From Spirochaetia bacterium (GTDB lineage: Bacteria > Spirochaetota > Spirochaetia > SZUA-6 > Bin103): a DNA stretch of 64,000 nucleotides. Where the stretch lies: the NCBI GenBank assembly GCA_965203055.1, contig OZ241863.1, positions 2,976,001-3,040,000 on the forward strand. The letters run 5' to 3'. The position numbers and the translations under genes are program-made. How positions within the stretch are numbered: position 1 is the stretch's first letter; each line of letters starts with the position of its first letter. The notes below the pieces were generated by a model. It was not told the DNA's origin. It did not search any database and saw only the letters and a program-made list of their open reading frames with translations. Of this stretch, positions 2,898 to 19,362 are shown one piece after another.

Positions 2898-2979
2898 GGC
2901 GCGTCTCGATGCGGCGCGGTCACGGTCCGGCCATGATAGCCGGAACGGTACGCGGCCATCATCCGCTCATCCGCCGGCC
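2898..2979. repeat. Conserved intergenic linker L, copy 1, with inverted repeat
   Basis: ATGATAGCCG (2933-2942) ... CGGCCATCAT (2953-2962), followed by ccgctcatccgcc. Confidence 0.8.
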
Positions 2980-5115
2980 TTACGGCTCTCCCGCGCTGCG
3001 GCGGGGCGCTGCAATCTCCGCGCTCCAGAGTTGTCCTTCGCCCCTGATGAACTGCCCGGTACGGATGCGCGTGAACTGGTAGTCGGGCAGGACCACGACC
3101 GCCGCGCAGGCGCCGCCGCGGCGCGCGCCGCCCTCCCAGAGATAGAAGTCCAGGTTGTCGAACCCCTGCTCCCGCTGGAAGGCGGGCAGGTCGGCGGCGT
3201 CCGCCGGGAAGAGGTGCAGGAAGAACCGCTCCGCATCCAGGTCGTCCACCGTGCAGGCATCCTTGACGTAGGTCAGGGTGTCGCCGTCGAGATACAGGTC
3301 GAAGTCCGATTCCGCGACCGGTTCCCGCGACCGTGCGGAGCGGTACGCTTCCCGGAAGTCCGCAACGGTCGCGGCGTCGAGCTGCGCCGGGTCGAGGGCC
3401 GCCACCGTGAGGATGGTGTTGTGGTAGATGCGGCGCGCATGGACCACGGACGAGAACGGGAAGCTGCGGCGATGGTTGGCGCGCGCATGATTGGCGATGA
3501 CGTAGTGCCGCTCCGACGCGTCATCCACGCGGTTGGTGAAGACGATTCGGCGCCGCTCGGCCGCGGGAAGCAGCCGCGCGGTGCGGGTGGCCAGGGTCAC
3601 CGGCAGGCGCGCGGCCTGCCGTTCGGCGCCGGCGGGATTGCCGCTCCCGCGGTTTGCCAGGACGACGTGGACGGTGCCCTGCGGATGGCGCCGGAGCAGA
3701 TATTCCAGCCCTTCGCGGTACGCCGGTCCGTAGTAGTCGAGGTCGTACCGGGTGCGCAGGTATTCCGGGGTACGGCGGTCGACCAGGAAGTTGAAGTACC
3801 GCATCTGATACGGGTGGATCAGCGCCATCTCGACCGCCGCCGCGGCCACGCCCGCCGCGGCCAGCGCGTAGATGGCGCGCCGCAGCCACCGCCGCCGGCC
3901 CGCCGCGGCCAGCAGCCGGCGCAGGCCGTAGACCGCCAGCAGGCAGAGCGGCGCGGCCAGGAAGTACATGTGCCGCCAGCCGTGGTTGAGGGTGGAGTTC
4001 ACTACGATGACGGCCGCGATCGACAGCGCCGGACAGGCGACCAGCAGCACCCCGAAGCGCGTGACGGGGGTGTTGCGAAGGACCTCGCGCGGGCGCGTCA
4101 GACCGCGTCCGAGCACGGCGCCGATCCCGGCCAGGCTCAGCAGCAGCGCCGCCGGCGGGGTGGTGATCGCCATCCAGGTCGGCAGGTAGTGCGGCGGAAT
4201 CTCCGGCCAGCGCACCAGCTCGCCCTGAAACAGCGTCGCGCCGCGCACCGGATGTTGCGCCAGCGTGACGACGGCGTCGATCAGCTCCGGCGGGTTGCGC
4301 CAGAGATGGGGCGAGACCGCGTACAGGCTCGCCGCCGCAGCCAGCAGGAACGCCCCGGCGGTCGCCAGCACCCGCCGCCGCTCCGCCGGCCCGCTTGCCT
4401 GGATCAGGTCGAGCGCCCGCAGCGCCGGCACCGCGGCGCACAGCAAGAGGCCCATGACGCGCAGGTTGACCAGCACGCCCACGCCCAGCCCGCAGAGCGC
4501 GAACGCGCCGGCGGTGTCGCGGCGGAAGGCGCGCTGCGTCAGGTAGAGCGCGATCATGAACATCGCCAGGAAGGGGATGTCCTTGGTGTTGAAGAAGGAG
4601 TGGGCGTACAGGCGGGGCTGCAGCAGGAACAGCAGCAGGGCGAACAGCGCCAAGCGGCGGTCGCGGAACAGGCGATAGGTCAGCAGCCAACAGAAGAAGC
4701 CGCCGGTGAGGAAGAACAGGTGGGTCAGCAGGTGGCGGCTGAGGTAGACGGCGCGGCTGTCGGTGAGGCCGAGCAGCCGTTCGACCAGGATCAGCGGCGC
4801 TTCGAACGCGACTCCGTAGTACCGGTTGTGGTCGGCCGGCAGGGCGCCGGCGTCGCCCAGCGCGTAGGCGATCGCCGCCAAGCCGATGTTGCGTTGCCAA
4901 ACCTCGTCCCATCCTAAGCCGTAGTCGTCGAGGACGGCGGCGCCCACTGCCGCGAACGCGATGAGCGCAATGATCGCGTCCCGCCCGGGCAGCCGCCGAG
5001 GCGTATCCTGCGGCGGTTGCGGCGGTCGGCGGTTCAGTGCGATGGCAGGCCCCCTGCTTCGACCACGCCGGCGCTGTGGCGGGGCGTCAGGCGCGGGCCA
5101 CCTCGAAGGTGGCAA
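2980..5115 (-). CDS. GT-C fold (PMT/ArnT-like, GT39/GT83-type) membrane glycosyltransferase GT1 with one C-terminal module; true start uncertain
   Basis: DDYGLGWDE after the first TM helix, many TM helices, HSFFNTKDIPF and GWRHMYF motifs. The TTG at 5115 lies inside an AAA remnant; an in-frame ATC at 5043 follows a GGGGG run. Confidence 0.75.
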   Translation of the reverse strand: MPPSRWPAPDAPPQRRRGRSRGPAIALNRRPPQPPQDTPRRLPGRDAIIALIAFAAVGAAVLDDYGLGWDEVWQRNIGLAAIAYALGDAGALPADHNRYYGVAFEAPLILVERLLGLTDSRAVYLSRHLLTHLFFLTGGFFCWLLTYRLFRDRRLALFALLLFLLQPRLYAHSFFNTKDIPFLAMFMIALYLTQRAFRRDTAGAFALCGLGVGVLVNLRVMGLLLCAAVPALRALDLIQASGPAERRRVLATAGAFLLAAAASLYAVSPHLWRNPPELIDAVVTLAQHPVRGATLFQGELVRWPEIPPHYLPTWMAITTPPAALLLSLAGIGAVLGRGLTRPREVLRNTPVTRFGVLLVACPALSIAAVIVVNSTLNHGWRHMYFLAAPLCLLAVYGLRRLLAAAGRRRWLRRAIYALAAAGVAAAAVEMALIHPYQMRYFNFLVDRRTPEYLRTRYDLDYYGPAYREGLEYLLRRHPQGTVHVVLANRGSGNPAGAERQAARLPVTLATRTARLLPAAERRRIVFTNRVDDASERHYVIANHARANHRRSFPFSSVVHARRIYHNTILTVAALDPAQLDAATVADFREAYRSARSREPVAESDFDLYLDGDTLTYVKDACTVDDLDAERFFLHLFPADAADLPAFQREQGFDNLDFYLWEGGARRGGACAAVVVLPDYQFTRIRTGQFIRGEGQLWSAEIAAPRRSAGEP
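5011..5035. repeat. Degenerate remnant (3 units) of the GGCGGTTC octamer at the GT1 5' end
   Basis: cggcggttg cggcggt cggcggttc. Confidence 0.55.
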
Positions 5116-5258
5116 GGGCGCGTCTCGCGGCTGAGCGCCCGCAGCAGTTCGTTCAGAGCGAGCCGCACCTCGCGGTTGGGATAGCCGAGCCGGTAGAGCG
5201 CCTCGCCGTCGTCATCTTCGACGATGATGCGGTCGTCGCTCGCCACCGCGTGCTTCAT
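5087..5258 (-). pseudogene. Collapsed AAA-nuclease remnant (unrelated N-terminus + internal piece + C-terminal piece)
   Basis: MKHAVASDDRIIV joined to EDDDGEALYRLGYPNREVRLALNE-LLRAL, joined to SRETR...FEVARA-stop DNA. TACACT lies 6 nt upstream of the ATG. Confidence 0.8.
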
Positions 5259-5304
5259 GCCTGCAGTGTATCCTGCCCGATGGCGACAAGGAAGCAGGCT
5301 TCCG

Positions 5305-7677
5305 TCACTCGCTGCCGGCTGACCGCCCGTTCGGCTGCGCCGCGGCCGGCGCCGCAATCTCCGCACTCCAGAGTTCGCCCTCCCCGCTGATGAACTGGCC
5401 GGTGCGGAGGCCGGCGATCGCGTAGTCCGGCAACGGCGCCAGGATCACGCATGCTTCGCCGAGCAGCGCTCCGTATTCCCGGTAGTCGAAGCCGACGTTC
5501 TCGAAGCCGTGCGGCCGGTGTTGCGGGGACAGGTCCCGCGCGTCCGCCGGGATCACGTGCAGGAAGAACCGTTCCCGCACGTCCTCCTCGGTGCACGGCT
5601 CCTTGTGGTACGCCAGCACCCTTCCGGCGTGATAGAGGTCGAAGACCCCGCGGGCCGGTGCTCCCCAGGCGCCGGAGCGGATCGCGGCGCGCGCCTCCCA
5701 ATAGCGCTGCGCGGTCGGTCCGGCCGGGAACTCCACGCTCCAGAGCTGCCGCCCGCCCACCCGAACGAACTGCCCGGTGCGGATGCGCGTGAACTCGTAG
5801 TCGGGCAGTACCACGACCGCCATGCAGGCGCCGTCGAGCCGCGCGCCGCCCTCGTAGAAGTAGAAATCCAGGTTGTCGAACCCCTGCTGAGACGCGGGAA
5901 GGTCGGCGGCGTTCGCCGGGAAGACGTGCAGGAAGAACTTCTCCTGCACGTCTTCCGGCGCGCATCGGTTCTTGACGTAGGTGAGCGTCGCGCCGTCGAG
6001 ATACAGGTCGAAGTGCGAGCTGGCGGTCGGCTCCCGCGACCGTGTGGAGCGGTACGCTGACCGGAATGCGGCTGCGGTATCGTCTCCCGGCGACGGGTCG
6101 AGTCTGGCAACCGTGAGGATGACGTTGTGGTAGATGCGGCGCGCGTATACCACGGACGAAAACGGGAATCTGCGGCGCTGATCGGCGAGCGTAGCGCTGG
6201 TGATGACGTAGTAATGGCTCGCTACGTCGGGCACGCGGTCGGCGATGACGATTCTGCGCCGCTCGGCCGCGGGGAGCAGTCCCAGATTTCTGATCAAGGT
6301 CGGCTGAGGTGGGACGACGTGGACGGTTGCCGTCGGGTGGTGCCGGAGCAGATACTCCAGCCCATCCCGTTGCGCCGTTCCATAGTGGTTCATCTCGTAG
6401 CGGGTGCGCAGGTATTCGGGGGTACGGCGGTCCACCAGGAAGTTGAAGTATACGTGCTGATAGGGATGCAGGCGCGCGAGGTCGACCGCCATGCCGGCCA
6501 GCGCCGCCGCCGCCAGCGCGTAGACGCCGCGCCGCAGCCACGGCCGGCGCGCGGCTGCCAGCAGCCAGCGCATGCCGTAGACCGCCAGCAGGCACAGCGG
6601 CGCGGCCAGGAAGTACATGTGCCGCCAGCCGTGGTAGAGGTTGGAGTTGACCACGATGACGGCCGCGATCGACAGCGCCGGACAGGCAACCAGCAGCACC
6701 CCGAAGCGCGTGACGGGGGTGTTGCGGAGCGCGGAGCGCGGGCGGATCATGCCGCGCCCGAGCACGGCGCCGAACCCGGCCAGGCTCAGCAGCAGCGCCG
6801 CCGGCGGCGTGGTGATCGCCATCCAGGTGGGCAGGTAGTGCGGCGGAATCTCCGGCCAGCGCACCAACTCGCCCTGAAACAACATCCAAGCGCGGATGGG
6901 ATGGTGCGCCAGCGTGACGACGGCGTCGATCAGCTCGAACGGGTTGCGCCAGAGATGGGGCGAGACCGCGTACAGGGCCGCCGCCGCGGCCAGCAGGAAC
7001 GCGCCGGCGGTCGCCAGCGCGCGCCGCCGCTCCGCCGGCCCGCCGGCCCGCAGCAGATCAAGCGCTCGCAGCGCCGGCACCGCCGCGCACAGCAGCAGGC
7101 CCATGACCCGCAGGTTGACCAGCACGCCCACGCTCAGCCCGCAGAGCGCGAACGCGCCGGCGGTGTCGCGGCGGAAGGCGCGCTGCGTCAGGTAGAGCGC
7201 GATCATGAACATCGCCAGGAAGGGGATGTCCTTGGTGTTGAAGAAGGAGTGCGCGTACAGGCGGGGCTGCAGCAGGAACAGCAGCAGGGCGAACAGCGCC
7301 AAGCGGCGGTCGCGGAACAGGCGGAAGGCGAGCAGCCAGCAGAAGAAGCCGCCGGTGAGGAAGAACAGGTGAGTCAGCAGGCGGCGGCTGAGGTAGACGG
7401 CGCGGCTGTCGGTGAGGCCGAGCAGCCGCTCGACCAGGATCAGCGGCGCTTCGAATGCGGCTCCGTAGTACCGGTCATGGCCTGCCGGCAGGGCGCCGGT
7501 TGCGCCCTGCGCGTAGGCGATCGCCGCTTGGCCCAGGCGGCGCTGATAGGGCGTATCCGACGCCACGCCGTAGTCGTCGAGGACGGCGGCGCCCACCGCT
7601 GCGAACGCGATGATCGCGATGAGCGCGTCACGCCACGGCAAGCCGGCGGTTCGGCGGTTCGACAACAGGATTGCCAC
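5305..7677 (-). CDS. GT-C membrane glycosyltransferase GT2 with two C-terminal modules
   Basis: Close paralogue of GT1 with DDYGVASDT. The N-terminus MAILLSNRRTAGLPWRDAL carries 2 in-frame octamer units (7645-7660). Confidence 0.8.
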   Translation of the reverse strand: MAILLSNRRTAGLPWRDALIAIIAFAAVGAAVLDDYGVASDTPYQRRLGQAAIAYAQGATGALPAGHDRYYGAAFEAPLILVERLLGLTDSRAVYLSRRLLTHLFFLTGGFFCWLLAFRLFRDRRLALFALLLFLLQPRLYAHSFFNTKDIPFLAMFMIALYLTQRAFRRDTAGAFALCGLSVGVLVNLRVMGLLLCAAVPALRALDLLRAGGPAERRRALATAGAFLLAAAAALYAVSPHLWRNPFELIDAVVTLAHHPIRAWMLFQGELVRWPEIPPHYLPTWMAITTPPAALLLSLAGFGAVLGRGMIRPRSALRNTPVTRFGVLLVACPALSIAAVIVVNSNLYHGWRHMYFLAAPLCLLAVYGMRWLLAAARRPWLRRGVYALAAAALAGMAVDLARLHPYQHVYFNFLVDRRTPEYLRTRYEMNHYGTAQRDGLEYLLRHHPTATVHVVPPQPTLIRNLGLLPAAERRRIVIADRVPDVASHYYVITSATLADQRRRFPFSSVVYARRIYHNVILTVARLDPSPGDDTAAAFRSAYRSTRSREPTASSHFDLYLDGATLTYVKNRCAPEDVQEKFFLHVFPANAADLPASQQGFDNLDFYFYEGGARLDGACMAVVVLPDYEFTRIRTGQFVRVGGRQLWSVEFPAGPTAQRYWEARAAIRSGAWGAPARGVFDLYHAGRVLAYHKEPCTEEDVRERFFLHVIPADARDLSPQHRPHGFENVGFDYREYGALLGEACVILAPLPDYAIAGLRTGQFISGEGELWSAEIAAPAAAQPNGRSAGSE

Positions 7678-7749
7678 TACCGATTCACCGCCAAGCCGAG
7701 GATCAAGCTCATGCGGAGCGCCGTCGAGAGATGCCGCATTGCCACGCGG

Positions 7750-7794
7750 CCATAGCCTGAACGCCGAGCGGTTATCATCCGCTCATTCGCGGCC
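7750..7794. repeat. Partial linker L
   Basis: catagcctgaacgccgagcggttatcatccgctcattcgc. Confidence 0.7.
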
Positions 7795-9693
7795 TCACGG
7801 TTTCCGCGCCGCGGCCGGCGCCTCGATCTCCGCCGCCCAGAGCTGGCCCTGCCCGCTGATGAACTGGCCGGTGCGGAGGCGGACGATCTCATACTCCGGG
7901 AGTGTCGCGGCTACCAGGCAGGCGCCGTCCCAGAGCACGCCGCGCGTCCAGAAATCGAAGTCGAGGTTGTCGAACCCCTGCTCCCGGCTGTCGGCGGCCA
8001 GATCGTCTTCGCCGGCCGGAAAGACGTGCAGGAAGAAGCGCTCCCGGACATCCGCCCGAACGCAGGGCTCCTTCGCGTACACCAGCCGGTCCCCGGCCAG
8101 ATACAGGTCGAACACCCCGCCGGCGGCGCGCTGCCGGCCGTCCAGGGCCGCCGCCAGCTCCTCGAACCGCGCCCGCTCCTTGGCCAGGTAGTACTCCTTC
8201 TCGAACGTTGCGGCGCGCGCGTATGCGGGCGCCGCCGCCGGCGGCCGCAGCATGGTCTCGCCCATGATCGACTCGATGCCGCCGTAGGCCCGGTACCGCC
8301 GCGAGGAGTGCGGCCGCGGCACGTACCGTTGCCGGGCAACGACCCGGAACACTTCGTTGCCGGCCGCGTCCACCTCGACCACGGTCATCGGCGGGTCGCT
8401 CAATCTCGCGACGAAGTTGATCAGCGTATTGCCGTTGCTCAGCCGGTAGGCGCTGCTCCCGCTCGCCGAGTAGATATCCGGCGTCGGCCGGTACTCCCAC
8501 ACCTTCATCGCGGTGCCGGCCGCCTCGTCCAGCCGCAGCTCCAGCGCGCGCGAGTAGGCGCCGCCCTCGGCGTCGGGACGGCCCCGGCCGTTGTCGAACA
8601 GCAGTACGTTGCCGTCGTCGAGCTGCGCCGCGGTGTGCTGCCCGTAGAACCGGTCGTTCGGGTTCGGGAACTCGTAATCGCTGTCCGGTCCGTTCAGTTG
8701 CCATTCGATAGTCCACGAGTCCACGCTGAGCGAGACCACCTGATTGCGCGCGCGCGATGACAGGACGACGTTGCCGCGCGGGCCGATGCTCACCGAGTTG
8801 AGGTGCGTCCAACTGAAGTTGCTGCCGGTGCGGGTCCTCGCCCCGCGCTGGGCCGGGTCCAGCAGGTCCCAGGCGTCCGTCGAGTCCCAAACCTGCTCGA
8901 AGTGTCCGCTTCCCCGGTCCCAGACGCGCAGCTGGTCGGCGAACCCGGACGCATCCTGCGCCGGCCCGCCGTTCGCCGAGTCGTCGAAGACGAAGCGTGC
9001 CCGGCTCAGGTAGATCACGCGTTCGGCGTCGAGCACGGCGACGTCGTGGTGGGGATTCCCCGCGGCGCCACCCCGCGCGAACCGGTTGACCACTGCTCCC
9101 AGTGGGGTGATCTCGACCAGACTGCCTCCGCGCGCGAAGAGCAAGCTGCCGGCGGGCAACTGCGCGATGGGGCCGACGAGCCCTTCATGGTAATGGTACC
9201 AGACAATTCCGCCCACTTCGTCCTGGAAGACGTAGTACGCGCGCGGTTGATCGGACAGGATGAGCGGCTGCGAGCTCCTGCCGCGCACCTGCATCGGGAT
9301 GGCGGCGAGGGCCAGCGGCAGCGGTCCGGTGGTGAACCGGCCGCGCGGCCCGGCGGTCGCATGCGCGCCGTCGACCGCGGCCTCGTCCGTTACGGAGCCG
9401 TCCACCACGAAGATGGTGTAGTCGTAGGTCGTCTCCGGGCGCAGCCGGACGAGCGGGATGGCGTGCGCCGCGCCCGGCTCGCTCAGCGGCGTGCGGTAGC
9501 GGCCGGCCTGCGGGTTGTCGTACTCGACGAACACCCGCGCCGCGCGCGCCAGCGTCACCCGCACCTCGACGATCAGCGCGTTGCGCTCGCTGACCGACGC
9601 GCCGTGGCGCAGGACGGCGGCCGCGTCCGCGGACGCCAGGGCCGCGCCGACCACGATCAACGCAGCCGCTAGCGGCAGCTTCCTGCGCGTCAT
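7795..9693 (-). CDS. Arylsulfotransferase (ASST)-like secreted protein 1 with C-terminal module; chimeric N-terminus
   Basis: PHHD, WTHLNSV, SSR..NQV, FYGQHTA, LLFDNG and GSSAYRLSNGNTLI motifs. Starts MTRRKLP (the AAA start) then LAAALIVVGAALASA. The ORF-track extension to 10284 overlaps GT3. Confidence 0.8.
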   Translation of the reverse strand: MTRRKLPLAAALIVVGAALASADAAAVLRHGASVSERNALIVEVRVTLARAARVFVEYDNPQAGRYRTPLSEPGAAHAIPLVRLRPETTYDYTIFVVDGSVTDEAAVDGAHATAGPRGRFTTGPLPLALAAIPMQVRGRSSQPLILSDQPRAYYVFQDEVGGIVWYHYHEGLVGPIAQLPAGSLLFARGGSLVEITPLGAVVNRFARGGAAGNPHHDVAVLDAERVIYLSRARFVFDDSANGGPAQDASGFADQLRVWDRGSGHFEQVWDSTDAWDLLDPAQRGARTRTGSNFSWTHLNSVSIGPRGNVVLSSRARNQVVSLSVDSWTIEWQLNGPDSDYEFPNPNDRFYGQHTAAQLDDGNVLLFDNGRGRPDAEGGAYSRALELRLDEAAGTAMKVWEYRPTPDIYSASGSSAYRLSNGNTLINFVARLSDPPMTVVEVDAAGNEVFRVVARQRYVPRPHSSRRYRAYGGIESIMGETMLRPPAAAPAYARAATFEKEYYLAKERARFEELAAALDGRQRAAGGVFDLYLAGDRLVYAKEPCVRADVRERFFLHVFPAGEDDLAADSREQGFDNLDFDFWTRGVLWDGACLVAATLPEYEIVRLRTGQFISGQGQLWAAEIEAPAAARKP

Positions 9694-9773
9694 GGGCGCG
9701 TCTCGGTGCGGCGCGGTCACGGTGCGGCCATGATAGCCGAACGGCGCGGCTATCATCCGCTCATCCGCCGGCT
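9694..9773. repeat. Linker L with perfect 10-bp inverted repeat
   Basis: ATGATAGCCG (9730-9739)-7 nt-CGGCTATCAT (9747-9756). Confidence 0.85.
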
Positions 9774-12104
9774 TCACGGCCCCTGCGCCGCGGCCGGCGC
9801 CTCGATCTCCGCGCTCCAGAGCTGGCCCTGCCCGCTGATGAACTGGCCGGTGCGGAGGCCGGCGATCGCGTATTCCGGCAACGGCGCCAGCGCCACGCAC
9901 GCTTCGCCGAGCCGCACCCCATGTTCCCGGTAGTCGAAGCTCAGGTTCTCGAAGCCGTACGGCCGGTCGTGCGCGGCAAGGTCCTCCGCGTCCGCCGGAA
10001 TCACGTGCAGGAAGAACCGCTCCCGCACGTCCGCCGCGGCGCACGGCTCCTTGTGGAAGGTCAGCACGCCGCCGTCGAGATAGAGGTCGAAGGCGGCGCG
10101 GGCGGCCGGCTCGCCCCGGTCCCCGGCGGAGATCGCCTGATGCGCCTGCCAAAACCGGCTCACGGACGGTTCCGTCGCGGCAAGGTCGATGGTCGCTTCG
10201 ATCAGGGCGCCTGCGCCGGGGACCAGCCGGCCGATTTCGAGCGCCCGGATCGGGTAGTCCGGCAAGATGCGGCGTATCATACACCGCCCGTCGAAGCGCA
10301 CCCCGTAGTGGCCGAACCGGAAGGTGAACGGATACCGGCCGCCGTCGCGGCGGATCAGGGGAAGATCATCGACCTCGACGGGAGCGGCCCGTAGCGTGAA
10401 CGGATGCGCGGTATCCTCCGGGCGGCACGCTTCCTTGACGTAGGTCAGCGTCCGGCCGTCGAGATAGAGGTCGAACTCCGACCGGAATAGCGGCTCCCCG
10501 GCGACCGTCGCGCGGTACGCTTGGCGATAGCGGTCGGCGGTGGCTTGGTCGACCCGGGACAGGTCGACTGCGGTGACCGCGAGCACGGTGTTGTGGTAGA
10601 TGCGGCGCGCGTAGAGGACCGGACCGAACGGCGGTTCCGTGCCAAGATGCCGGTAATCGGTGGCGAAGGAGAAGTCGGCCGCCCTGCCTGCTTCGTCGGC
10701 AATGAATAGCCGGCGCCGTTCCTCCGCCGGCAGGATGGACGCATTGCGCCGCACGTTGTGACTCCAGACGAAGGTCCGGTCCACGTAGCTCGGCGACTCG
10801 GGGTAGCGTTCGAGCAGAAATTCCAGCCCTTCCCGGTACTGGGTGCCCCAATACATCACCTGATAGCGGGTGTTCAGGCGCTCCGGGGTGCGGCGGTCGA
10901 CCAGGAAGTTGAAGTAGGCCTGTTGATGGGGATGGAGGCGCGCGATGTCGACCGCCATGCCGGCCAGCGCCGCCGCGGCCAGAGCGTAGAGTCCGCGCCG
11001 CAGCCACGGTTGGGGAGCGGCGGCGAGCAGCCGGCGCAGGCCGAAGACGGCCAGCAGGCACAGCGGGGCGTACAGGAAGTACATGTGGCGCCAACCGTTG
11101 TAGAGGTTGGAGCGCAGCGCCATGACGGCGGCGATCGGGAGCAGCAGGCAGGCGAGCAGCAGGAACAGGAAGCGCACGCCGGTATTGCGGACCAGTGCAC
11201 CGGGGCGGGCGGCGCCGCGACCGATCACGGCCGCGACGCCGAACAGGCACAGCAGCAGGGTGGCCGGCGGCGTGGTGATCGCCATCCAGGTGGGCAGGTA
11301 GTGCGGCGGAATCTCCGGCCAGCGCACCAGCTCGCCCTGGAACAGCGTCGCACTGCGGGAGGGATGGTGCGTGAACGTGGCGACGGCGTCGATCAGCTCC
11401 AGCGGGTTGCGCCAGAGATTGGGGGAAACCGCGTACAGGGTCGCCGCCGCGGCCAGCAGGAACGCGCCGGCGGTCGCCAGCGCGCGGCGCCGCTCCCCCG
11501 GCCCGTCGGCCCGCAGCAGATCAAGCGCCCGCAGCGCCGGCACCGCCGCGCACAGCAGCAGGCCCATGACGCGCAGGTTGACCAGCACGCCCACGCTCAG
11601 CCCGCAGAGCGCGAACGCGCCGGCGGTGTCGCGGCGGAAGGCGCGCTGCGTCAGGTAGAGCGCGATCATGAACATGACCAGGAAGGGGATGTCCTTGGTG
11701 TTGAAGAAGGAGTGGGCGTACAGGCGAGGCTGCAGCAGGAACAGCAGCAGGGCGAACAGCGCCAGCCGGCGGTCGCGGAACAGGCGGAAGGCGAGCAGCC
11801 AGCAGAAGAAGCCGCCGGTGAGGAAGGACAGGTGGGTCAGCAGGTGGCGGCTGAGGTAGATGGCGCGGCTGTCGGTGAGGCCGAGCAGCCGCTCGACCAG
11901 GATCAGCGGCGCTTCGAACGCGACTCCGTAGTATCGGTCATGGTGGTCCGGCAGAGCGCCGGCGTCGCCCAGCGCGTAGGCGACCGCCATCTGGCCGATG
12001 CGGCGCTGCTTGAGCGTATCGTGCGCCACGCCGTAGTCGTCGAGGACGGCGGCGCCCACCGCCGCGAACGCGATGAGCGCGACGAGCGCGTCACGCCACG
12101 GCAA
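9774..12104 (-). CDS. GT-C membrane glycosyltransferase GT3 with two C-terminal modules; possibly phase-variable from ATG 12309
   Basis: Paralogue of GT1/GT2 with DDYGVAHDT. The reading frame stays open upstream through the repeat tract. Confidence 0.8.
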   Translation of the reverse strand: MPWRDALVALIAFAAVGAAVLDDYGVAHDTLKQRRIGQMAVAYALGDAGALPDHHDRYYGVAFEAPLILVERLLGLTDSRAIYLSRHLLTHLSFLTGGFFCWLLAFRLFRDRRLALFALLLFLLQPRLYAHSFFNTKDIPFLVMFMIALYLTQRAFRRDTAGAFALCGLSVGVLVNLRVMGLLLCAAVPALRALDLLRADGPGERRRALATAGAFLLAAAATLYAVSPNLWRNPLELIDAVATFTHHPSRSATLFQGELVRWPEIPPHYLPTWMAITTPPATLLLCLFGVAAVIGRGAARPGALVRNTGVRFLFLLLACLLLPIAAVMALRSNLYNGWRHMYFLYAPLCLLAVFGLRRLLAAAPQPWLRRGLYALAAAALAGMAVDIARLHPHQQAYFNFLVDRRTPERLNTRYQVMYWGTQYREGLEFLLERYPESPSYVDRTFVWSHNVRRNASILPAEERRRLFIADEAGRAADFSFATDYRHLGTEPPFGPVLYARRIYHNTVLAVTAVDLSRVDQATADRYRQAYRATVAGEPLFRSEFDLYLDGRTLTYVKEACRPEDTAHPFTLRAAPVEVDDLPLIRRDGGRYPFTFRFGHYGVRFDGRCMIRRILPDYPIRALEIGRLVPGAGALIEATIDLAATEPSVSRFWQAHQAISAGDRGEPAARAAFDLYLDGGVLTFHKEPCAAADVRERFFLHVIPADAEDLAAHDRPYGFENLSFDYREHGVRLGEACVALAPLPEYAIAGLRTGQFISGQGQLWSAEIEAPAAAQGP

Positions 12105-12110
12105 GCCGCC

Positions 12111-12286
12111 GGTTCGGCGGTTCGGCGGTTCGGCGGTTCGGCGGTTCGGCGGTTCGGCGGTTCGGCGGTTCGGCGGTTCGGCGGTTCGGCGGTTCGGCGG
12201 TTCGGCGGTTCGGCGGTTCGGCGGTTCGGCGGTTCGGCGGTTCGGCGGTTCGGCGGTTCGGCGGTTCGGCGGTTCGGCGGTTCGGC
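12111..12286. repeat. Simple sequence repeat (GGTTCGGC)22
   Basis: 176 bp of perfect 8-bp tandem units, counted by hand. Confidence 0.95.
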
Positions 12287-12289
12287 GAC

Positions 12290-12395
12290 AGGATGCCTCG
12301 TATTGCCATAAGGTGTCAACCTACTCGGCATTTTCATTTGCTGTTGCTGCTGCATTTTGCTTGCTTTGCCGCACGTAAACCTTCCTCGAACATGG
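12290..12395 (-). promoter_or_regulatory. A-rich upstream element U with TTGACA, upstream of GT3
   Basis: Minus strand gcaaaatgcagcagcaacagcaaatgaaaatgccgagtaggTTGACAccttATGgcaatacgaggCATCCT; nearly identical copy at 17142-17250. Confidence 0.6.
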
Positions 12396-12460
12396 GCACG
12401 TCACTTTGTCACTTTGGTGGGGGCTGACCGCCCGTTCGGCTGCACGCCGGCGGGCGCCAG

Positions 12461-12741
12461 CGCCGAAGTCGAGGCGCACCACCGGGCGGCGCTTGGACCA
12501 CTCCGAGTGATCGTGCACGTGCAGGCCGCGGAACAGCTCCTCGCTGCCCTCGAACAGTTCCTTGATGGTGTCCAGCAGCAGGCTCTTGCCGAACCGCCGC
12601 GGGCGCGACGGAAGTAGTGCGTGCCTCCCCACACCAAGCACAGGATGAAGGCGGTCTTGTCGACGTAGTAGCGTAGTAGCAGTCGTCCTCGCGGAGCTTG
12701 CGGAAGGTCTGAATGCCGGTCGGCAGCTTCCTGCGCGTCAT
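12461..12741 (-). pseudogene. 5' fragment of an AAA-nuclease gene, frameshifted and truncated
   Basis: MTRRKLPTGIQTFRKLREDDCYY, an 8-bp duplication (ctactacg), a further indel, and homology ending at RLDFG. Confidence 0.85.
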
Positions 12742-12823
12742 GGGCGCGTCTCGGTGCGGCGCGGTCACTGTGCGGCCATGATAGCCGAACGGCGCGCGGC
12801 TATCATCCGCTCATCCGCCGGCC
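12742..12823. repeat. Linker L with perfect 10-bp inverted repeat
   Basis: ATGATAGCCG (12778-12787)-9 nt-CGGCTATCAT (12797-12806). Confidence 0.85.
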
Positions 12824-12946
12824 TCACGGCCCCTGCGCCGCGGCCGGCGCCTTGATCTCCGCGCTCCAGAGCTGGCCCTCCCCGCTGATGAACTGGCCGG
12901 TGCGGAGGCCGGCGATCGCGTATTCCGGCAACGGCGCCAGCCTCAT
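12824..12946 (-). pseudogene. 3'-terminal remnant of a GT gene, now a 40-aa mini-ORF
   Basis: MRLAPLPEYAIAGLRTGQFISGEGQLWSAEIKAPAAAQGP-stop, near-identical to the end of GT3. Confidence 0.8.
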
Positions 12947-13003
12947 GGTTTCCTGACCGCCGCGCAGCGCCGTCGAACGGCACGCCGGCGCTGGGGCGGG
13001 GCG

Positions 13004-14545
13004 TCAGGCGCGGGCCACCTCGAAGGCGGCGATGTTGCGTGCCTCGCGGCTGAACTCCACGCCGAGCAGGTGGATCGGTTCGCCCAGGCCGCGGTACTTC
13101 TCCGCGTAGCCGCGCGCCTGCAACTGCGCCAGCGCGGCGCCCTCCGGCTCCAGCTCCACCACCTTGAACTCGAACAGATAGACGTTGCCCCGGTACCGCA
13201 CCGCCAGATCGACCCGCCCGCGGCTGCTCGAATCCTCGACCGTGACGTCCAGCCCCACCGCCGCGAACCAGGAATAGCAGACGCTCGCGTAGTAGCCCTC
13301 GTAGCGCGCGATGTCGTTGCGTGTGTGCCACTCGTAGGGGATGCCGGCGAAGAACGCCCGGAACAGCGCCTCCAACCCGGCGAAGTCGTTCGCCGCCAGC
13401 AGCCGGCGCAAGCGTGGGCGGTCCGCGGCCTGACCGGCGGCGCCGAGCGCGCGAAGCAGGCTGCGGTTGAGGCTCTGGCGCACCTCGCGGTTGGGATAGC
13501 CGAGCCGGTAGAGCGCCTCGCCATCGTCGTCTTCGACGTCCCGAATGGTCAGGTAGCCGGTCTGGAACAGCAGCGCCGCCGGCTCCATCTCCTCCACGTC
13601 GAACGCGGACAGCAGCTCGGCGCCGGCCAGCATCCCGTCCAGCTCCGGCGAGGCGACGCCGCGCTCGATCAGGATGTCGATCAGAAACGACGGCGTGCCG
13701 GTCTCGAACCAATGGGCGGCGAACTCCCGGCGGTCGAACAGCAGCAGGATGTCGAACGGGTTGTAGACCCGATCGTCACCGCGCCAGTTATAGCCGTTGT
13801 ACCAATCGCGGATCCGTTCGCGGTCCAGCCCGGCCAACTCCGGCGCGAACACCATGTCGAGATCCGCTTCGGTGTAGCCGCAGATCGCCGCATAGCGCGG
13901 ATCCAGCGTGATGTCGATCAGATTGTTGAGGCCGGAGAAGACGCTGACCTTGGAGAACTTGCTCACCCCGGTCAGCAGCGTGAAGTGGATGTGCGCGTCG
14001 GCGAACTTCACGTTCGAGTAGAGGCTGCGCAAGAGCCGGCGGTTGGCGGCCGCGATCGCCGGCGTCCCCAGCGCGTCCAGGATCGGCTTGTCGTACTCGT
14101 CGACCAGCACCGCCACCCGCCGGCCGGCGCTCCGGTGCAGCTCCTCCAGCAGGCGCCGGAAGCGGATCGGCGCGGAGGCGCTGCGCGCGCTCGCGCCGGC
14201 GGCCGTCTCGAGCGCCGTCAACTGATCGGCCAGGTCTTCTTGCAGACCGTCCGGCGCCGAGTAGTCGCCGCCGCCGAAGTCGAGGCGCACCACCGGGCGG
14301 CGTTTCGACCACTCCCAGTGGTCGTGCACGTACAGGCCGCGGAACAGCTCCTCGCTGCCCTCGAACAGTTCCTTGATGGTGTCGACCAGCAGGCTCTTGC
14401 CGAAGCGGCGCGGGCGCGACAGGAAGTAATGCGTGCCGGCGCGCGTCAGGCGGAGGATGAAGGCGGTCTTGTCGACGTAGTAGCAGTCGTCCTCGCGGAG
14501 CTTGCGGAAGGTCTGAATGCCGATCGGCAGTTTCCGGCGCGTCAT
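13004..14545 (-). CDS. AAA-ATPase-like / PD-(D/E)XK nuclease protein, copy 2
   Basis: Same motifs as copy 1, 513 aa. Confidence 0.9.
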   Translation of the reverse strand: MTRRKLPIGIQTFRKLREDDCYYVDKTAFILRLTRAGTHYFLSRPRRFGKSLLVDTIKELFEGSEELFRGLYVHDHWEWSKRRPVVRLDFGGGDYSAPDGLQEDLADQLTALETAAGASARSASAPIRFRRLLEELHRSAGRRVAVLVDEYDKPILDALGTPAIAAANRRLLRSLYSNVKFADAHIHFTLLTGVSKFSKVSVFSGLNNLIDITLDPRYAAICGYTEADLDMVFAPELAGLDRERIRDWYNGYNWRGDDRVYNPFDILLLFDRREFAAHWFETGTPSFLIDILIERGVASPELDGMLAGAELLSAFDVEEMEPAALLFQTGYLTIRDVEDDDGEALYRLGYPNREVRQSLNRSLLRALGAAGQAADRPRLRRLLAANDFAGLEALFRAFFAGIPYEWHTRNDIARYEGYYASVCYSWFAAVGLDVTVEDSSSRGRVDLAVRYRGNVYLFEFKVVELEPEGAALAQLQARGYAEKYRGLGEPIHLLGVEFSREARNIAAFEVARA

Positions 14546-14613
14546 GGCGCGTCTCGATGCGGCGCGGTCATGGTCCGGCCATGATAGCCGAACCCCGTGC
14601 GGCTATCATCCGC
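14546..14613. repeat. Linker L with perfect 10-bp inverted repeat
   Basis: ATGATAGCCG (14581-14590)-9 nt-CGGCTATCAT (14600-14609). Confidence 0.85.
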
Positions 14614-16947
14614 TCATTCGCCGGAGTCGGCCTCACGGCCCTGCGCCGCGGCCGGCGCCGCAATCTCCGCGCTCCAGAGCTGGCCTTCGCCGCTGATGAA
14701 CTGGCCGGTGCGGAGGCCGGCGATCTCATACTTCGGCAACGGCGCCAGCGCCACGCACGCCGCGCCGAACAGCGCCCCGTGTTCCCGGTAGTCGAAGTCC
14801 CGGTTCTCGAAGCCGCGCAGCCGGTCTTGCGGGGACAGAGCCCCGGCGTCCGCGGGAATCACGTGCAGGAAGAACCGCGCCCGCAGGTCCTCCGCCGCGC
14901 ACGGCTCCTTGTGATACGCCAGCACCGTTCCGTTCAGATAGAGGTCGAACGCTCCGCGCGCGGCCGGCGCTCCCCAGGCGCCGGAGCGGATCGCGGCGCT
15001 CGCATCCCGATAGCGCTGCGCGGTCGGTCCGGCCGCGAACTCGACGCTCCACAGTTGGGGCCAGCCGCGGGTTTCGAACTGCCCGGTACGGATGCGCGTG
15101 AACTCGTAATCGGGCAGTGCCACGACCGCCACGCAGGCGCCGTCGATCCGCGCGCCGCCCTCCCAGAGATAGAAGTCCCAGTTGTCGAACCCCGACTCCC
15201 GCTGGTGGGCGGGCAGGTCGGCGGCATCCGCGGGGAAGACGTGCAGGGAGAACTTCTTCTCATCCAGGTCCTCCACCGGGCAGCTATCCTTGACATAGGT
15301 CAGCGTGGTGCCGTCGAGATACAGGTCGTAGTCCGAACTGGCGACCGGCTCCCGCGACCGTGCGGAGCGGTACGCTTCCCGGAAGTCGGCCACGGTCGCA
15401 GCGTCGAGCTGCGCCGGGTCGAGGGCGGCCACCGTGAGGATGGTGTTGTGGTAGATGCGGCGCGCATAGACCGCGGGCGAGAACGGGAAGCTGCGGCGGT
15501 GATTGGCACGAGTATGATTGGTGATGGCGTAGTGATGGGTCGCCGCGGCGTCATGCGCGCGGTCGGAGATGACGATTCTGCGGCGCTCGGCCGCCGGGAG
15601 TATGCGCAGATTGGCGCTGACGAGCGCGTATCTCCAGTTCTTCGCCGCAACGACGTGGACCGTTTCCTGCGGGTGGCGGCGGAGCAGATGCTCCAGCCCC
15701 TCGCGGTAGGCCGGCCCCCAGTACTCCATCTCGTAGCGGGTGCGCAGGTATTCGGGGGTGCGGCGGTCGACCAGGAAGTTGAAGTAGACCATCTGATGGG
15801 GATGGATCAGCGCCATCTCGACCGCGGCCGCGGCCAAGCCCGCCGCGGCCAGCGCGTAGATGCCGCGCCGGAGCCACCGCCGCCCGCCCCGCGGCGGCAG
15901 CAGCCGGCGCAGGCCGTAGACCGCCAGCAGGGCCAGCGGCGCGGCCAGGAAGTACATCTGCCGCCAGCCGTTGTAGAGATTGGCGTCGACCGCGATGACG
16001 GCCGCGACCGGCAGCGCCAGGCAGGCGACCAGCAGCGCCCCGAAGCGCGTGACGGGGGTGTTGCGGAGGACCTCGCGCGGGCGCGTCAGGCTGCGCGCGA
16101 ACACGGCGACGATTCCGGCCAGGCTCAGCAGCAGCGCCGCCGGCGGCGTGGTGATCGCCATCCAGGTCGGCAGGTAGTGCGGCGGAACCTCCGGCCAGCG
16201 CACCATTTCGCCTTGAAACAGTGTTGGAATAGGGGAGGGATGGCGCGCGAACGTGACGACGGCGTCGATCAGCTCAAACGGGTCGCGCCAGAGATGGGGC
16301 GAGACCGCGTACAGGGCCGCCGCCGCGGCCAGCAGGAACGCCCCGGCGGTCGCCAGCGCGCGCCTCCGCTCCGCCGGCCCATGCGCCTGCAGCAGGTCGA
16401 GCGCCCGCAGCGCCGGCACCGCGGCGCACAGCAGCAGGCCCATGACGCGCAGGTTGACCAGCACGCCCACGCCCAGCCCGCAGAGCGCGAACGCCCCGGC
16501 GGTGTCGCGGCGGAAGGCGCGCTGCACCAAGTAGAGCGCGATCATGAACATCGCCAGGAAGGGGATGTCCTTGGTGTTGAAGAAGGAGTGGGCGTACAGG
16601 CGGGGCTGCAGCAGGAACAGCAGCAGGGCGAACAGCGCCAGCCGGCGGTCGCGGAACAGGCGGAAGGCGAGCAGCCAGCAGAAGAAGCCGCCGGTGAGGA
16701 AGAACAGGTGGGTCAGCAGGTGGCGGCTGAGGTAGACGGCGCGGCTGTCGGTGAGGCCGAGCAGCCGTTCGACCAGGATCAGCGGCGCCTCGAACGCGAC
16801 TCCGTAGTACCGGTTGTGGTCGGTCGGCAGGGCGCCGGCGTCGCCCAGCGCGTAGGCGATCCGCGTCTGGCCGATGCGGCGCTGGTGGTGCTCATCCCAC
16901 GATATGCCGTAGTCGTCGAGCACGGCGGCGCCCAGCGCCGCGAACAC
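14614..16947 (-). CDS. GT-C membrane glycosyltransferase GT4 with two C-terminal modules; possibly phase-variable from ATG 17161
   Basis: DDYGISWDE. Homology continues in frame upstream of GTG 16947 (PWRDALIALAV) with no in-frame start codon, so the real start lies beyond the repeat. Confidence 0.8.
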   Translation of the reverse strand: MFAALGAAVLDDYGISWDEHHQRRIGQTRIAYALGDAGALPTDHNRYYGVAFEAPLILVERLLGLTDSRAVYLSRHLLTHLFFLTGGFFCWLLAFRLFRDRRLALFALLLFLLQPRLYAHSFFNTKDIPFLAMFMIALYLVQRAFRRDTAGAFALCGLGVGVLVNLRVMGLLLCAAVPALRALDLLQAHGPAERRRALATAGAFLLAAAAALYAVSPHLWRDPFELIDAVVTFARHPSPIPTLFQGEMVRWPEVPPHYLPTWMAITTPPAALLLSLAGIVAVFARSLTRPREVLRNTPVTRFGALLVACLALPVAAVIAVDANLYNGWRQMYFLAAPLALLAVYGLRRLLPPRGGRRWLRRGIYALAAAGLAAAAVEMALIHPHQMVYFNFLVDRRTPEYLRTRYEMEYWGPAYREGLEHLLRRHPQETVHVVAAKNWRYALVSANLRILPAAERRRIVISDRAHDAAATHHYAITNHTRANHRRSFPFSPAVYARRIYHNTILTVAALDPAQLDAATVADFREAYRSARSREPVASSDYDLYLDGTTLTYVKDSCPVEDLDEKKFSLHVFPADAADLPAHQRESGFDNWDFYLWEGGARIDGACVAVVALPDYEFTRIRTGQFETRGWPQLWSVEFAAGPTAQRYRDASAAIRSGAWGAPAARGAFDLYLNGTVLAYHKEPCAAEDLRARFFLHVIPADAGALSPQDRLRGFENRDFDYREHGALFGAACVALAPLPKYEIAGLRTGQFISGEGQLWSAEIAAPAAAQGREADSGE

Positions 16948-16980
16948 CGCCAGCGCGATGAGCGCGTCACGCCACGGCGT

Positions 16981-17139
16981 GTTCGGCGGTTCGGCGGTTC
17001 GGCGGTTCGGCGGTTCGGCGGTTCGGCGGTTCGGCGGTTCGGCGGTTCGGCGGTTCGGCGGTTCGGCGGTTCGGCGGTTCGGCGGTTCGGCGGTTCGGCG
17101 GTTCGGCGGTTCGGCGGTTCGGCGGTTCGGCGGTTCGGC
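16981..17139. repeat. Simple sequence repeat (GTTCGGCG)~20
   Basis: 159 bp of the same octamer. Confidence 0.95.
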
Positions 17140-17141
17140 AC

Positions 17142-17250
17142 AGGATGCCTCGTATTGCCATAAGGTGTCAACCTACTCGGCATTTTCATTTGCTTTTGCT
17201 GCTGCATTTTGCTGCTTGCCTTGCCGCACGTAACCTCTTCCTCGAACACC
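17142..17250 (-). promoter_or_regulatory. A-rich upstream element U with TTGACA, upstream of GT4
   Basis: Second copy of 12290-12395. Confidence 0.6.
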
Positions 17251-17311
17251 GGCGGTTGCCTTGAACTGCTCTACTTTGCCGTCACCCGGTGGGGACTGGC
17301 CGCTCGTTCGG

Positions 17312-19246
17312 CTACTCGCCGGCCGGCACCGCAATCTCCGCGCTCCAGAGCCGCCCTCCGCCGGCGCTGAACTGGCCGGTCCGGACGTGGGAGATCTCAT
17401 ACTCCGGGAGGGTCGCGGCCACCAGGCAGGCGCCGTCCCAGAACACGCCGCGCGGCCGTTCATCGAAATGAAAGTCGAGATTGTCGAATCCCTGCTCGCG
17501 GCTGCCGGAGGGCAGATCGTCTACGGCGATCGGAACGACGTGCAGAAAGAAGCGCGCCCGGACATCCCGCGGCGCGCAGGGTTCCTTCACGTATACCAGC
17601 CGGTCCCCTGCCCGATACACGTCGAACGCCCCGCCGGCGGCGAGCTGCCGGCCGTCCAGGGCCGCCGCCAGCTCTTCGAACCGCGCCCGTTCCTTGGCCA
17701 GGTAGTAGTCCTTCTCGAACGTCGCGGCGCGCGCGTGCGCGGGCGCCGCCGCCGGCGGCCGCAGCATGGTTTCGCCCATGATCGCCCCGATGCCGCCGTA
17801 GGCTCGATAGCGCGTCGGCAAGGGCCGATCCGCATGCAATGGCAGGTTATCGCCTCGGAACACTTCGTTGCCGGCGGCGTCCACCTCCACGATCGTGTCA
17901 TGGAAGCTGATCAGGGTATTGCCGCTGCGCAGCCGGTACGCGCTGCCCTTGCCCCTCGTGTAGATGTCCGGCGTCGGCCGGTATTCCCACACTTTCACCG
18001 CAGTGCCGGCCGCCTCGTCCAGCCGCAGCTCCAGCGCGCGCGAGTAGGCGCCGCCCTCCGAATCGGGCCGCCCCCAGCCGTTGTCGAACAGCAGAACGTT
18101 GCCGTTGCCGAGCTGCGCCGCCGTGTGCTGCCCGTAGAACCGGTCGTTCGGGTCCGGGAACCGGTAATCGCTGTCCGGCCCGTGCAGTTGCCACTCGATC
18201 GCCCGCAAGTCGGCGCTGAGCGAGACCACCTGATTGCGCACGCGGGACGACAGGATGACGTTGCCGCGCGGACCGACGCTCACCGAGTTGAGGCCCGTCC
18301 ACTGGAAGACGGCGTTGTTTGATCTCGTTCTCGTATCGCGCAGTGCCGGGTCCAGCAGGTCCCAGGCGTCCTTCGAGTCCCAGACCTGCTCGAAGTGTCC
18401 GCTTTCCCGGTCATAGACGCGCAGATTGTCGACCCCGAACGCAGCTTCCGCCGGCCCGCCGTTCGCCGAGTCGTCGAAGACGACGGACTTCCGGGTCAGG
18501 TAGATCACCCGGCCATCGGCGAGCACGGTGAGCTCATGGTGGGGATGCCCCGCGGGGCCGTCCCGCTCGAACCGGTTGACCATTGCTCCCAATGGGGTGA
18601 TCTCGACCATGCTGTGATATACGAAGAGCAAGTTGCCGTCGGAAAGCTGCGCGATGGGGCCGCCGAACCCCCCTTCATGTTCATGGTACCAGACTATTCC
18701 ACCCACCTCGTCCCAGAAGACGTAGTACCCGCGCGGGTAGTCGGACAGGATGAGCGGCTGCGAGCTCCTGCCGCGCACCTGCAACGGAATGGCGGCGAGG
18801 GGCAGCGGCAGCGGTCCGGTGGTGAACCGGCCGTCCGGCCCGGCGGCCGCATCCGCATCCGCGCCGTCCAGCGCGGCCTCGTCCGTCACGGAGCCGTTCA
18901 CCACGAAGATGGTGTAGTCGTAGGTCGTCTCCGGGCGCAGCCTGACGACCGGGATGGCGTGCGCCGCGCCGGGTTCGCTCAGCGGCGTGCGGTAGCGGCC
19001 GGCCTGCGGGTTGTCGTACTCGACGAACACCCGCGCGGCGCGGGCCAGCGCCACCCGCACCTCGACGATCAGCGCGTTGCGCTCGCTGAACGAGGCGTCG
19101 TGCCGCAGGACGGCGGGCGCGTCCGCGGACGCCGGCGCCGCGCCGAACACGATAAACGCAGCCGCCAGCGCCGGCACCAGGCTAGACCGACCATACGGCG
19201 GTCGACGATCTAGCGTCACGCCGGGCGCCGTCAAGATCGATTTCAT
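17312..19246 (-). CDS. Arylsulfotransferase (ASST)-like secreted protein 2 with C-terminal module
   Basis: Paralogue of 7795-9693: PHHE, WTGLNSV, SSRVRNQV, FYGQHTA, LLFDNG, plus a signal-like hydrophobic segment. Confidence 0.8.
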   Translation of the reverse strand: MKSILTAPGVTLDRRPPYGRSSLVPALAAAFIVFGAAPASADAPAVLRHDASFSERNALIVEVRVALARAARVFVEYDNPQAGRYRTPLSEPGAAHAIPVVRLRPETTYDYTIFVVNGSVTDEAALDGADADAAAGPDGRFTTGPLPLPLAAIPLQVRGRSSQPLILSDYPRGYYVFWDEVGGIVWYHEHEGGFGGPIAQLSDGNLLFVYHSMVEITPLGAMVNRFERDGPAGHPHHELTVLADGRVIYLTRKSVVFDDSANGGPAEAAFGVDNLRVYDRESGHFEQVWDSKDAWDLLDPALRDTRTRSNNAVFQWTGLNSVSVGPRGNVILSSRVRNQVVSLSADLRAIEWQLHGPDSDYRFPDPNDRFYGQHTAAQLGNGNVLLFDNGWGRPDSEGGAYSRALELRLDEAAGTAVKVWEYRPTPDIYTRGKGSAYRLRSGNTLISFHDTIVEVDAAGNEVFRGDNLPLHADRPLPTRYRAYGGIGAIMGETMLRPPAAAPAHARAATFEKDYYLAKERARFEELAAALDGRQLAAGGAFDVYRAGDRLVYVKEPCAPRDVRARFFLHVVPIAVDDLPSGSREQGFDNLDFHFDERPRGVFWDGACLVAATLPEYEISHVRTGQFSAGGGRLWSAEIAVPAGE

Positions 19247-19255
19247 CGTTGCGGG

Positions 19256-19285
19256 ATTCTACGCGCGCGGTTGCGCGCCGGACAA
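19256..19285 (-). promoter_or_regulatory. sigma70-type promoter for ASST2
   Basis: TTGTCC-18 nt-TAGAAT-9 nt-ATG. Confidence 0.5.
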
Positions 19286-19362
19286 CCGCCACGCCAGCCC
19301 TCATGGTTTCCTGACCGCCGCGCAGGCGCCGTCGAACGGCACGCCGGCGCTGGGGCGGGGCG

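Follow-up and report, generated by a model that had tools for sequence, protein, structure and literature searches.

A long octanucleotide array as a probable three-state switch of a GT-C type glycosyltransferase gene in an uncultured spirochete

The gene GT3, located on the minus strand of a 64,000-nucleotide (nt) stretch of DNA from a Spirochaetia bacterium (assembly GCA_965203055.1, contig OZ241863.1, positions 2,976,001 to 3,040,000; hereafter the window, to which coordinates refer unless a contig is named), encodes a putative membrane glycosyltransferase and is preceded by a long, perfect array of an octanucleotide. We consider it probable that this array is a slipped-strand contingency switch placed in the 5' coding region of GT3 and having three states, and that at the 22 units now present the gene is most likely OFF. 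An earlier note on this DNA had proposed translational ON/OFF switching at this site, a proposal which is supported by the comparison of paralogues and orthologues, by the mixed frames found among them and by the purifying selection acting on the genes.

Results and Discussion

The GT3 array and its reading frames

Repeat finding and translation define the array as 22 units of CCGAACCG plus two further bases (12110..12287, minus strand, with the units at 12110-12285). Tandem Repeats Finder gives the same limits, 12110-12287, with a period of 8, 22.2 copies and 100% matches, and the 16-mer made of two units has 39 matches in the window versus 0.00 expected from 100 shuffles. As the earlier note had stated, the repeat is free of stops, which holds in all three sense frames, and each of them encodes (PNRRTAEP)n. 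The array follows an ATG at 12307..12309 (start codon A, MAIRGILS..., minus strand), which is homologous to the GTG start of the paralogue GT2 and to the in-frame ATG of the paralogue GT5. At 22 units this start is off by +1 relative to GT3, and its product of 72 amino acids (aa) is presently closed by a TGA at 12091..12093 (minus strand, from translation), so that the 22 perfect units after ATG 12309 and the stop at 12091 were read correctly in the earlier note. Indeed, its arithmetic also holds: the distance from ATG 12309 to the TTG at 12104, from which GT3 is listed, is 205 nt, or 1 mod 3, and thus one additional unit (213 nt) or two fewer (189 nt) would restore the GT3 frame from this ATG.

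A second group of start codons, the ATGs at 12355, 12337 and 12331 (start cluster B, MQQQQQMKMPSRLTPYGNTRHPV..., 12329..12355, minus strand), belongs to the third frame, meets no stop within the array and would be in frame with GT3 at one unit fewer or two more (21 or 24). As cluster B is in a different frame from start A, two of the three length classes could be ON; the frame homologous to cluster B is the one found in frame in six orthologous alleles. Upstream of these ATGs begins a short frame of 17 codons, from GTG 12374 to TAG 12323-12321 (12321..12387 including its Shine-Dalgarno-like box, minus strand, from the sequence), in which a purine-rich, Shine-Dalgarno-like GAGGAAGG at 12387-12380 is followed by 5 nt and then by the GTG. 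The box and the GTG are kept in all five aligned array loci, the GT3 frame at 22 units is in phase with this short frame, and the 17 codons may well be translated. A conserved leader peptide was considered and rejected because indels after the GTG shift the upstream frame between loci.

The region also holds the sigma-70-like pair that the earlier note had reported (12290..12319, minus strand), in which TTGACA (12319-12314) is separated by an 18-nt spacer from CATCCT (12295-12290). The latter matches TATAAT at three of six positions and ends 2 nt before the array, and start codon A falls within the spacer. This pair gives rise to a different explanation, which we regard as decidedly unlikely, namely that the array is a variable 5' leader: the transcript would begin within the first units, and their number would exert a graded control through the length of the leader, Rho loading or promoter escape. 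The model for such an arrangement is the graded control by repeats upstream of hmwA or uspA2. The RNA of the array is C-rich and, in keeping with a leader, leader and array fold worse than all of 100 shuffles (z = +4.1), the array being unpaired in the centroid structure; also, GT3 and GT5 both have a TTG directly after the array, and octanucleotide repeats upstream of hmwA are described in PMC3309571. Against it, a consensus promoter scan did not report the TTGACA-CATCCT pair, its only hit here being a palindromic ATGATA-N17-TATCAT pair at 12806-12778. A search of 11800-12900 against Rfam gave no match.

Paralogues and the place of the start codon

The genome carries nine full-length GT paralogues and one fragment, arranged in two clusters. 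We searched 61 related genomes, this one (G000) included, and found the leader and arrays in one relative, the sister genome G011. In G000 a second array of CCGAACCG, with 19 perfect units (16975..17139, minus strand, from repeat finding), precedes the open reading frame of the paralogue GT4 (14614..16977, minus strand). Its leader is the same as that of GT3, with ATG 17161 and the ATGs 17207, 17189 and 17183, both start frames are out of frame, and no ATG, GTG or TTG occurs from the array to GTG 16947, which itself lies within the first transmembrane helix (TM1). A third array, that of GT5, is composed of 4 units, a 3-nt insertion and 28 units, and at this locus a single frame of 878-885 aa opens at the homologous ATG (MATQGILS...) and covers the enzyme down to its stop codon. 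The paralogue GT2 (5305..7677, minus strand) has two units (7644-7661) in frame after GTG 7677, reads (M)AILLSNRRTAGLPWRD, and is the unexpanded state of the array position. The earlier note was thus right in placing two in-frame units at this position of GT2, but the start is this GTG and not an ATG. In the array-less paralogues the start sites vary and lie upstream of the PWRD motif (12101-12090 in GT3, where TM1 begins directly after it); in these copies the homologous start and the hydrophobic segment share a single frame, which counts against a noncoding leader. The leader of GT1 (window ~5150-5200) and that of a paralogue at G000:C1 ~2951800 look one-base shifted at a run of five G when set against another paralogue, in which an ATG begins the homologous N-terminal tail (MVEARGPAI...).

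The position of start codons relative to the arrays bears directly on the leader explanation. In three of the five array loci read from DNA (GT4, G011 GT4 and G011 GT3) the stretch from the array to the middle of TM1 contains no ATG, GTG or TTG, and the same is true of the outer-membrane protein and arylsulfotransferase loci described below; a variable leader fails at such loci for want of a start codon after the array. Moreover, the supposed promoter of the outer-membrane protein locus has a canonical AAAGGAG-N5-ATG inside it. A TTG directly after the array exists only in GT3 and GT5 among the five loci and has no spaced Shine-Dalgarno box, while the codon equivalent to TTG 12104 is CTG in three paralogues, CCG in one and ACG in GT4, and is absent in the GT3 orthologue of G011. 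TTG 12104 was therefore rejected as a general start.

Repeat number and frame states among relatives

The number of repeats differs between close relatives whose flanks are conserved. GT3 has 22 units here versus 11 in G011, the identity of the flanks being 99.0% on the downstream side (19 mismatches in 1991 nt) and 96% on the upstream side, whereas GT4 is a counter-case: its orthologue in G011 also has 19 units (flanks 97.4% identical), with the frame-B start in frame. In the GT4 array of this genome, compared with that of the sister genome, a 1-nt deletion at the 5' junction puts the frame-B start out of phase. Proteins from independent assemblies (labelled P0xxx), grouped in clusters of at least 90% identity, extend the range to ~4 to 54 units, these protein-derived numbers being estimates (repeat residues x 3 / 8). 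GT5-like proteins (86.6-99.3% identity) have ~34, 18 and 54 units when opening with MATQGILS and ~19, 10 and 4 when in frame B (MKSDAEMVDTHGNTRHPV... and MRCDAEVV...), and three more have their start called after the array; among GT4-like proteins, those in frame B have ~20, 26 and 17 units, two others being called from within TM1. The earlier note had held that a switch would be refuted by an invariant tract together with translation of GT3 from TTG 12104 at any unit number; tract length varies, both between the two GT3 orthologues and across assemblies.

Frames could be read in 17 alleles, taken from the DNA loci and from the protein clusters, one of which has 23 members of which 15 were covered. 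Three alleles are in frame A (GT5, which is P0157, P0149 and P0151), six in frame B (G011 GT4, which is P0177, P0153, P0016, P0158, P0181 and P0188) and eight in neither (GT3, GT4, G011 GT3, P0001, P0154, P0156, P0175 and P0180). In-frame and out-of-frame alleles of an otherwise intact gene thus coexist, with downstream frames of 775-790 aa all intact. It might be argued that the out-of-frame state is a miscount by the assembler of a 176-nt perfect repeat and that GT3 is really in frame, as unit counts in long perfect repeats depend on the type of read and as the related protein P0151 has irregular repeats of the kind expected from a noisier assembly. However, the arrays of G000 and G011 are perfect and have no indels, their flanks align cleanly, the three arrays within one genome differ in state, and all three frames occur among independent assemblies. 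The polymorphism is thus independent of any single count, and we consider a miscount very improbable.

Selection and turnover of the arrays

When G000 is compared with G011, GT4 shows 52 synonymous and 47 non-synonymous changes, which gives a ratio of non-synonymous to synonymous substitution rates (dN/dS) of 0.31 (Fisher p = 2e-8), and GT3 shows 16 changes of either kind, with a ratio of 0.37 (p = 0.008): the GT genes evolve under purifying selection. The four arrays of the two genomes have accumulated 0 substitutions versus 16.8 expected at the synonymous rate (P = 5e-8), which points to a continual turnover of the arrays by gain and loss of units.

These data have to be set against the view, which we hold to be unlikely, that the array is a neutral, hypermutable microsatellite in redundant paralogues, generated by the mutational bias of a GC-rich genome, with accidental frames and no selected role. 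The unit is indeed widespread. A scan for the CCGAACCG pattern returned at least 119 stretches of 3 units, with 46 loci of 6 or more copies, in genome contigs and 36 loci of 5 or more copies in metagenome contigs; of these 82 array loci, checked by tblastn, only two adjoin a GT3 homologue, both in the sister genome, and the loci in unrelated genomes speak for the neutral reading. Arrays of 5 to 113 copies were seen in GC-rich bacteria as unrelated as Burkholderia, Streptomyces, Gemmatimonadota and Sphingomonas, among others, where their contexts are unrelated too, and a search with the 72-aa off-peptide gave 26 matches, all of them unrelated hypothetical open reading frames made of the same repeat, mostly from Burkholderia and also from Pandoraea, Carnimonas and unnamed assemblies. 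Neutrality would also agree with a family of ten members, in which single copies are expendable, with the alleles that are in neither frame, with a dN/dS of 0.5-0.6 between paralogues, and with GT1 and another paralogue looking shifted relative to the homologous start. On the other hand, dN/dS between orthologues, at ~0.3, is significantly lower than 1, which includes copies that one of the genomes has in the off state, no downstream frame is broken, arrays stand between start codon and hydrophobic segment in three unrelated surface-related gene families, and the combination of two start frames with one closed frame is the arrangement known for lic1. Neither the purifying selection nor the recurrent placement of the arrays agrees with a neutral repeat.

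Arrays of the same layout in other genes

The same layout is found elsewhere in the genome. An array (GCTCAACC)15 at G000:C1:1804096-1804215 directly follows the AAAGGAG-N5-ATG mentioned above, is out of frame, and precedes an outer-membrane beta-barrel gene (OMP_b-brl, Surface_Ag_2) in which the signal peptide lacks a start codon of its own; this array was not found in the sister genome. A heptamer array, (ACCGCCG)12 at G000:C1:2793543-2793626, separates an ATG (MKSIL...) from the signal peptide encoded by a gene of the arylsulfotransferase family; like its counterpart of 15 units in G011, it is out of frame, whereas an array-less arylsulfotransferase paralogue (17312-19246) runs from MKSILTAPGVTLDRRPPYGRSS... 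to the signal peptide without a change of frame. Three independent array types have a TTGACA 17-18 nt from a -10-like hexamer that ends 0-4 nt before the array, the hexamers being CATCCT at the GT loci (12290-12319), TACAAA at the arylsulfotransferase locus (G000:C1 ~2793510-2793545) and TAAGAT at the outer-membrane protein locus (G000:C1 ~1804065-1804096). This recurrence counts in favour of a variable leader, given that TTGACA is rare, with 458 occurrences on both strands of 4.56 Mb; the start codons fall inside or upstream of these boxes. The TTGACA boxes that abut the arrays might add a second, transcriptional layer of control.

Homopolymeric tracts are also abundant. The genome has 41 runs of G or C of 9-26 nt, with 19 of at least 14 nt versus 1.9 expected from composition and five of at least 20 nt versus 0.00 expected, and many of them are found at the 5' ends of long frames (650-850 aa) with no Pfam match. 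One 21-nt run lies between a TTGACA and a downstream Shine-Dalgarno box with ATG, like a promoter-spacer switch. On the whole, it is conceivable, although we would not yet favour it, that the octamer arrays are three-state switches (two alternative N-termini plus off) on several GT-C paralogues and that, together with the heptamer-switched arylsulfotransferase, the outer-membrane protein switched by an octamer in the manner of Opa and a family of poly-G lipoproteins, they make up a combinatorial surface contingency system in an uncultured, probably sponge-associated, high-GC spirochete.

Proposed mechanism and points that weigh against it

The unit of 8 nt is not divisible by 3, and the array lies downstream of the start codons that are presumably used and within the reading frame. 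Translation would start upstream of the array, in frame A from ATG 12309 or in frame B from the ATG cluster 12355-12329, both possibly fed by ribosomes that finish the short upstream frame with its strong Shine-Dalgarno-like box. The stop-free, unstructured repeat would then be read through as a cytoplasmic (PNRRTAEP)n tail, and the first GT-C membrane helix would be reached only if the number of units phases one of the start frames: n mod 3 = 2 (20, 23) would join frame A, n mod 3 = 0 (21, 24) would join frame B, and n mod 3 = 1 (22, as at present) would leave the enzyme in the closed third frame, that is OFF. Slippage at replication, the process that we infer, would add or remove units and flip GT3 in a heritable and reversible manner. 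With GT4, GT5 and the arylsulfotransferase gene carrying arrays of their own, the outcome would be a combinatorial variation of the modification of surface glycans, which may be of adaptive value.

A number of observations weigh against a switch of this kind. No switching within a population was seen in public sequencing runs: 19 of the 20 runs listed contain part of the stretch, as short assembled contigs, none contains half or more of the sampled words, and no contig crosses an array, including those of the four runs that were mapped on the 11-unit version. In one run two joints skip 71 nt inside the array, which is indistinguishable from assembly collapse or from the two-unit paralogue. Start codon A has only a weak Shine-Dalgarno-like match and sits in the TTGACA-N18-CATCCT spacer; since pairs of this type abut two other independent arrays in spite of the rarity of TTGACA, a transcript could begin at the array, without the start codons. 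The in-frame TTG right after the array is kept in GT3 and GT5, and the source annotation starts GT3 there (P0161). Moreover, the frame state of GT3 derives from a single assembly, whose unit count depends on its type of read, and GT4 has kept 19 units in both genomes despite a flank divergence of 2.6%. Lastly, the eight of 17 alleles that are in neither start frame and the paralogue-to-paralogue dN/dS would equally fit relaxed, redundant genes.

The GT3 product, its neighbours and the host genome

The intact GT3 frame (9774..12104, minus strand) has 776 aa when listed from TTG 12104. Its residues 87-231 match Pfam PMT_2 (PF13231) with 37.0 bits against a cut-off of 26.1 (E = 5.1e-9), and most of the 120 homologues listed have PF13231 and/or PF02366 as precomputed domains. 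Right after the first helix there is a DD..G...D motif, of which G25 and D29 do not vary among 35 homologues and D22 and D23 hardly do; a conserved acidic motif in the first loop after TM1 is what we take to have a catalytic role in the GT-C fold of the ArnT and PMT relatives. On account of the PMT_2 match and of this motif, the product is assigned as a putative GT-C type membrane glycosyltransferase. Solved structures searched with GT3 by sequence and by profile gave 0 matches, NCBIfam and PADLOC gave none, and for the C-terminal part neither a comparison of the C-terminal half with a protein atlas nor a Pfam search with the last 256 aa (E up to 10) returned a result. Residues ~520-776 (9777-10544) contain a duplicated module of ~110 aa with conserved Cys and no Pfam match, following the pattern FDLYLDG..LTY.K..C...FFLH..P.....GF.N.DF...C.A...LP.Y...IRTGQ. 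The module forms the C-terminus of the glycosyltransferases and is also found at the end of arylsulfotransferase-family genes and of the frame after the C14 run at 4311938.

An arylsulfotransferase-family gene (7795..9693, minus strand), whose probable start, ATG 9693, is followed by a signal peptide, lies 81 nt downstream of GT3. The two are possibly co-transcribed, in which case this gene could feel polarity from GT3. More broadly, the minus strand of window 1350-21300 is a modular cluster in which genes for PMT_2 glycosyltransferases alternate with members of the arylsulfotransferase family and with AAA-ATPase_like + PDDEXK_9 genes (1350-2897, 13004-14545 and 19363-21093), its units having in common blocks of 150-300 nt at 60-98% identity; a truncated AAA-ATPase remnant (12321-12641) continues into the GT3 leader.

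The window belongs to a single contig of 4.56 Mb with 68.75% G+C. G011 and G000 are labelled as different genera of one family, yet their 20-kb cluster has 92-99% DNA identity, with 99.4% for GT2, which leaves two readings, coarse labels or a transfer of the cluster between lineages. Runs labelled as sponge metagenomes contain 35-36% of the sampled words and unlabelled runs up to 40%, the pieces mapped being short, and the source organism is likely to be sponge-associated.

Comparison with known systems

In Haemophilus influenzae, lic1A, lic2A and lgtC are tetranucleotide contingency loci in lipooligosaccharide glycosyltransferase genes, and in lic1 start codons in two frames result in strong, weak and off states. 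As in the lic loci, a repeat whose unit is not a multiple of three lies in GT3 just after the probable start codon of a presumed surface-glycan gene, and the number of units sets the frame; frames A and B together with the closed frame match the two-start arrangement of lic1. The differences are that the unit has 8 nt and not 4, that the arrays are longer (19 to ~54 units), that GT3 is a putative membrane GT-C enzyme (PMT_2) in which the repeat would be translated as a cytoplasmic tail before TM1, and that the host is an uncultured, high-GC, spirochete-like bacterium and not a human pathogen.

The opa genes of Neisseria, some 11 paralogues, have CTCTT pentamer repeats in the region coding for the signal peptide. 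The GT genes resemble them as a family of paralogues whose copies could switch independently, an array of its own being present in each, after the ATG and before the hydrophobic N-terminal segment, and the beta-barrel gene behind (GCTCAACC)15 has the very same design; they differ in unit length and in their products, which are glycosyltransferases and arylsulfotransferase-family proteins rather than adhesins. The same CCGAACCG unit forms arrays, found here with up to 113 units, among the long simple sequence repeats (6-9 nt) of GC-rich genomes such as those of Burkholderia mallei and B. pseudomallei, but the genes there are unrelated to GT3.

Repeat-driven on/off switching is textbook knowledge for a few host-adapted pathogens and, to our knowledge, is hardly documented in environmental or symbiotic bacteria or for units of 8 nt. 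The GT3 array would be a known kind of switch in which the host and the unit length are unusual. For H. influenzae hmwA, PMC3309571 describes upstream units of 7 bp and, in biogroup aegyptius, an octanucleotide, GCATCATC, in 12-15 copies. The GT arrays are alike in their octanucleotide unit, in copy number and in having a promoter-like element next to them, and are unlike in that three of five array loci here have no start codon after the array. A survey of Type I restriction genes includes octanucleotide tracts in its counts (PMC7383803), and reports of simple sequence repeats of 6-9 nt are called rare in the abstract of PMC4692102. Among the matches listed in a literature search on phase variation and simple sequence repeats in sponge symbionts, no paper on a repeat switch was found.

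Significance

Several surface-modifying genes of one genome appear to be switched, namely three GT-C paralogues, one gene of the arylsulfotransferase family, one for an outer-membrane protein and many of lipoprotein type. Should the switching prove real, the heterogeneity of surface glycans in an uncultured lineage becomes directly testable, and annotation would need correction, as GT3 is called from a non-conserved TTG and some of its orthologues are called from within the first membrane helix. If true, the three-state combinatorial system would resemble what mucosal pathogens have, although its bearer would live in symbiosis with an early-branching animal.

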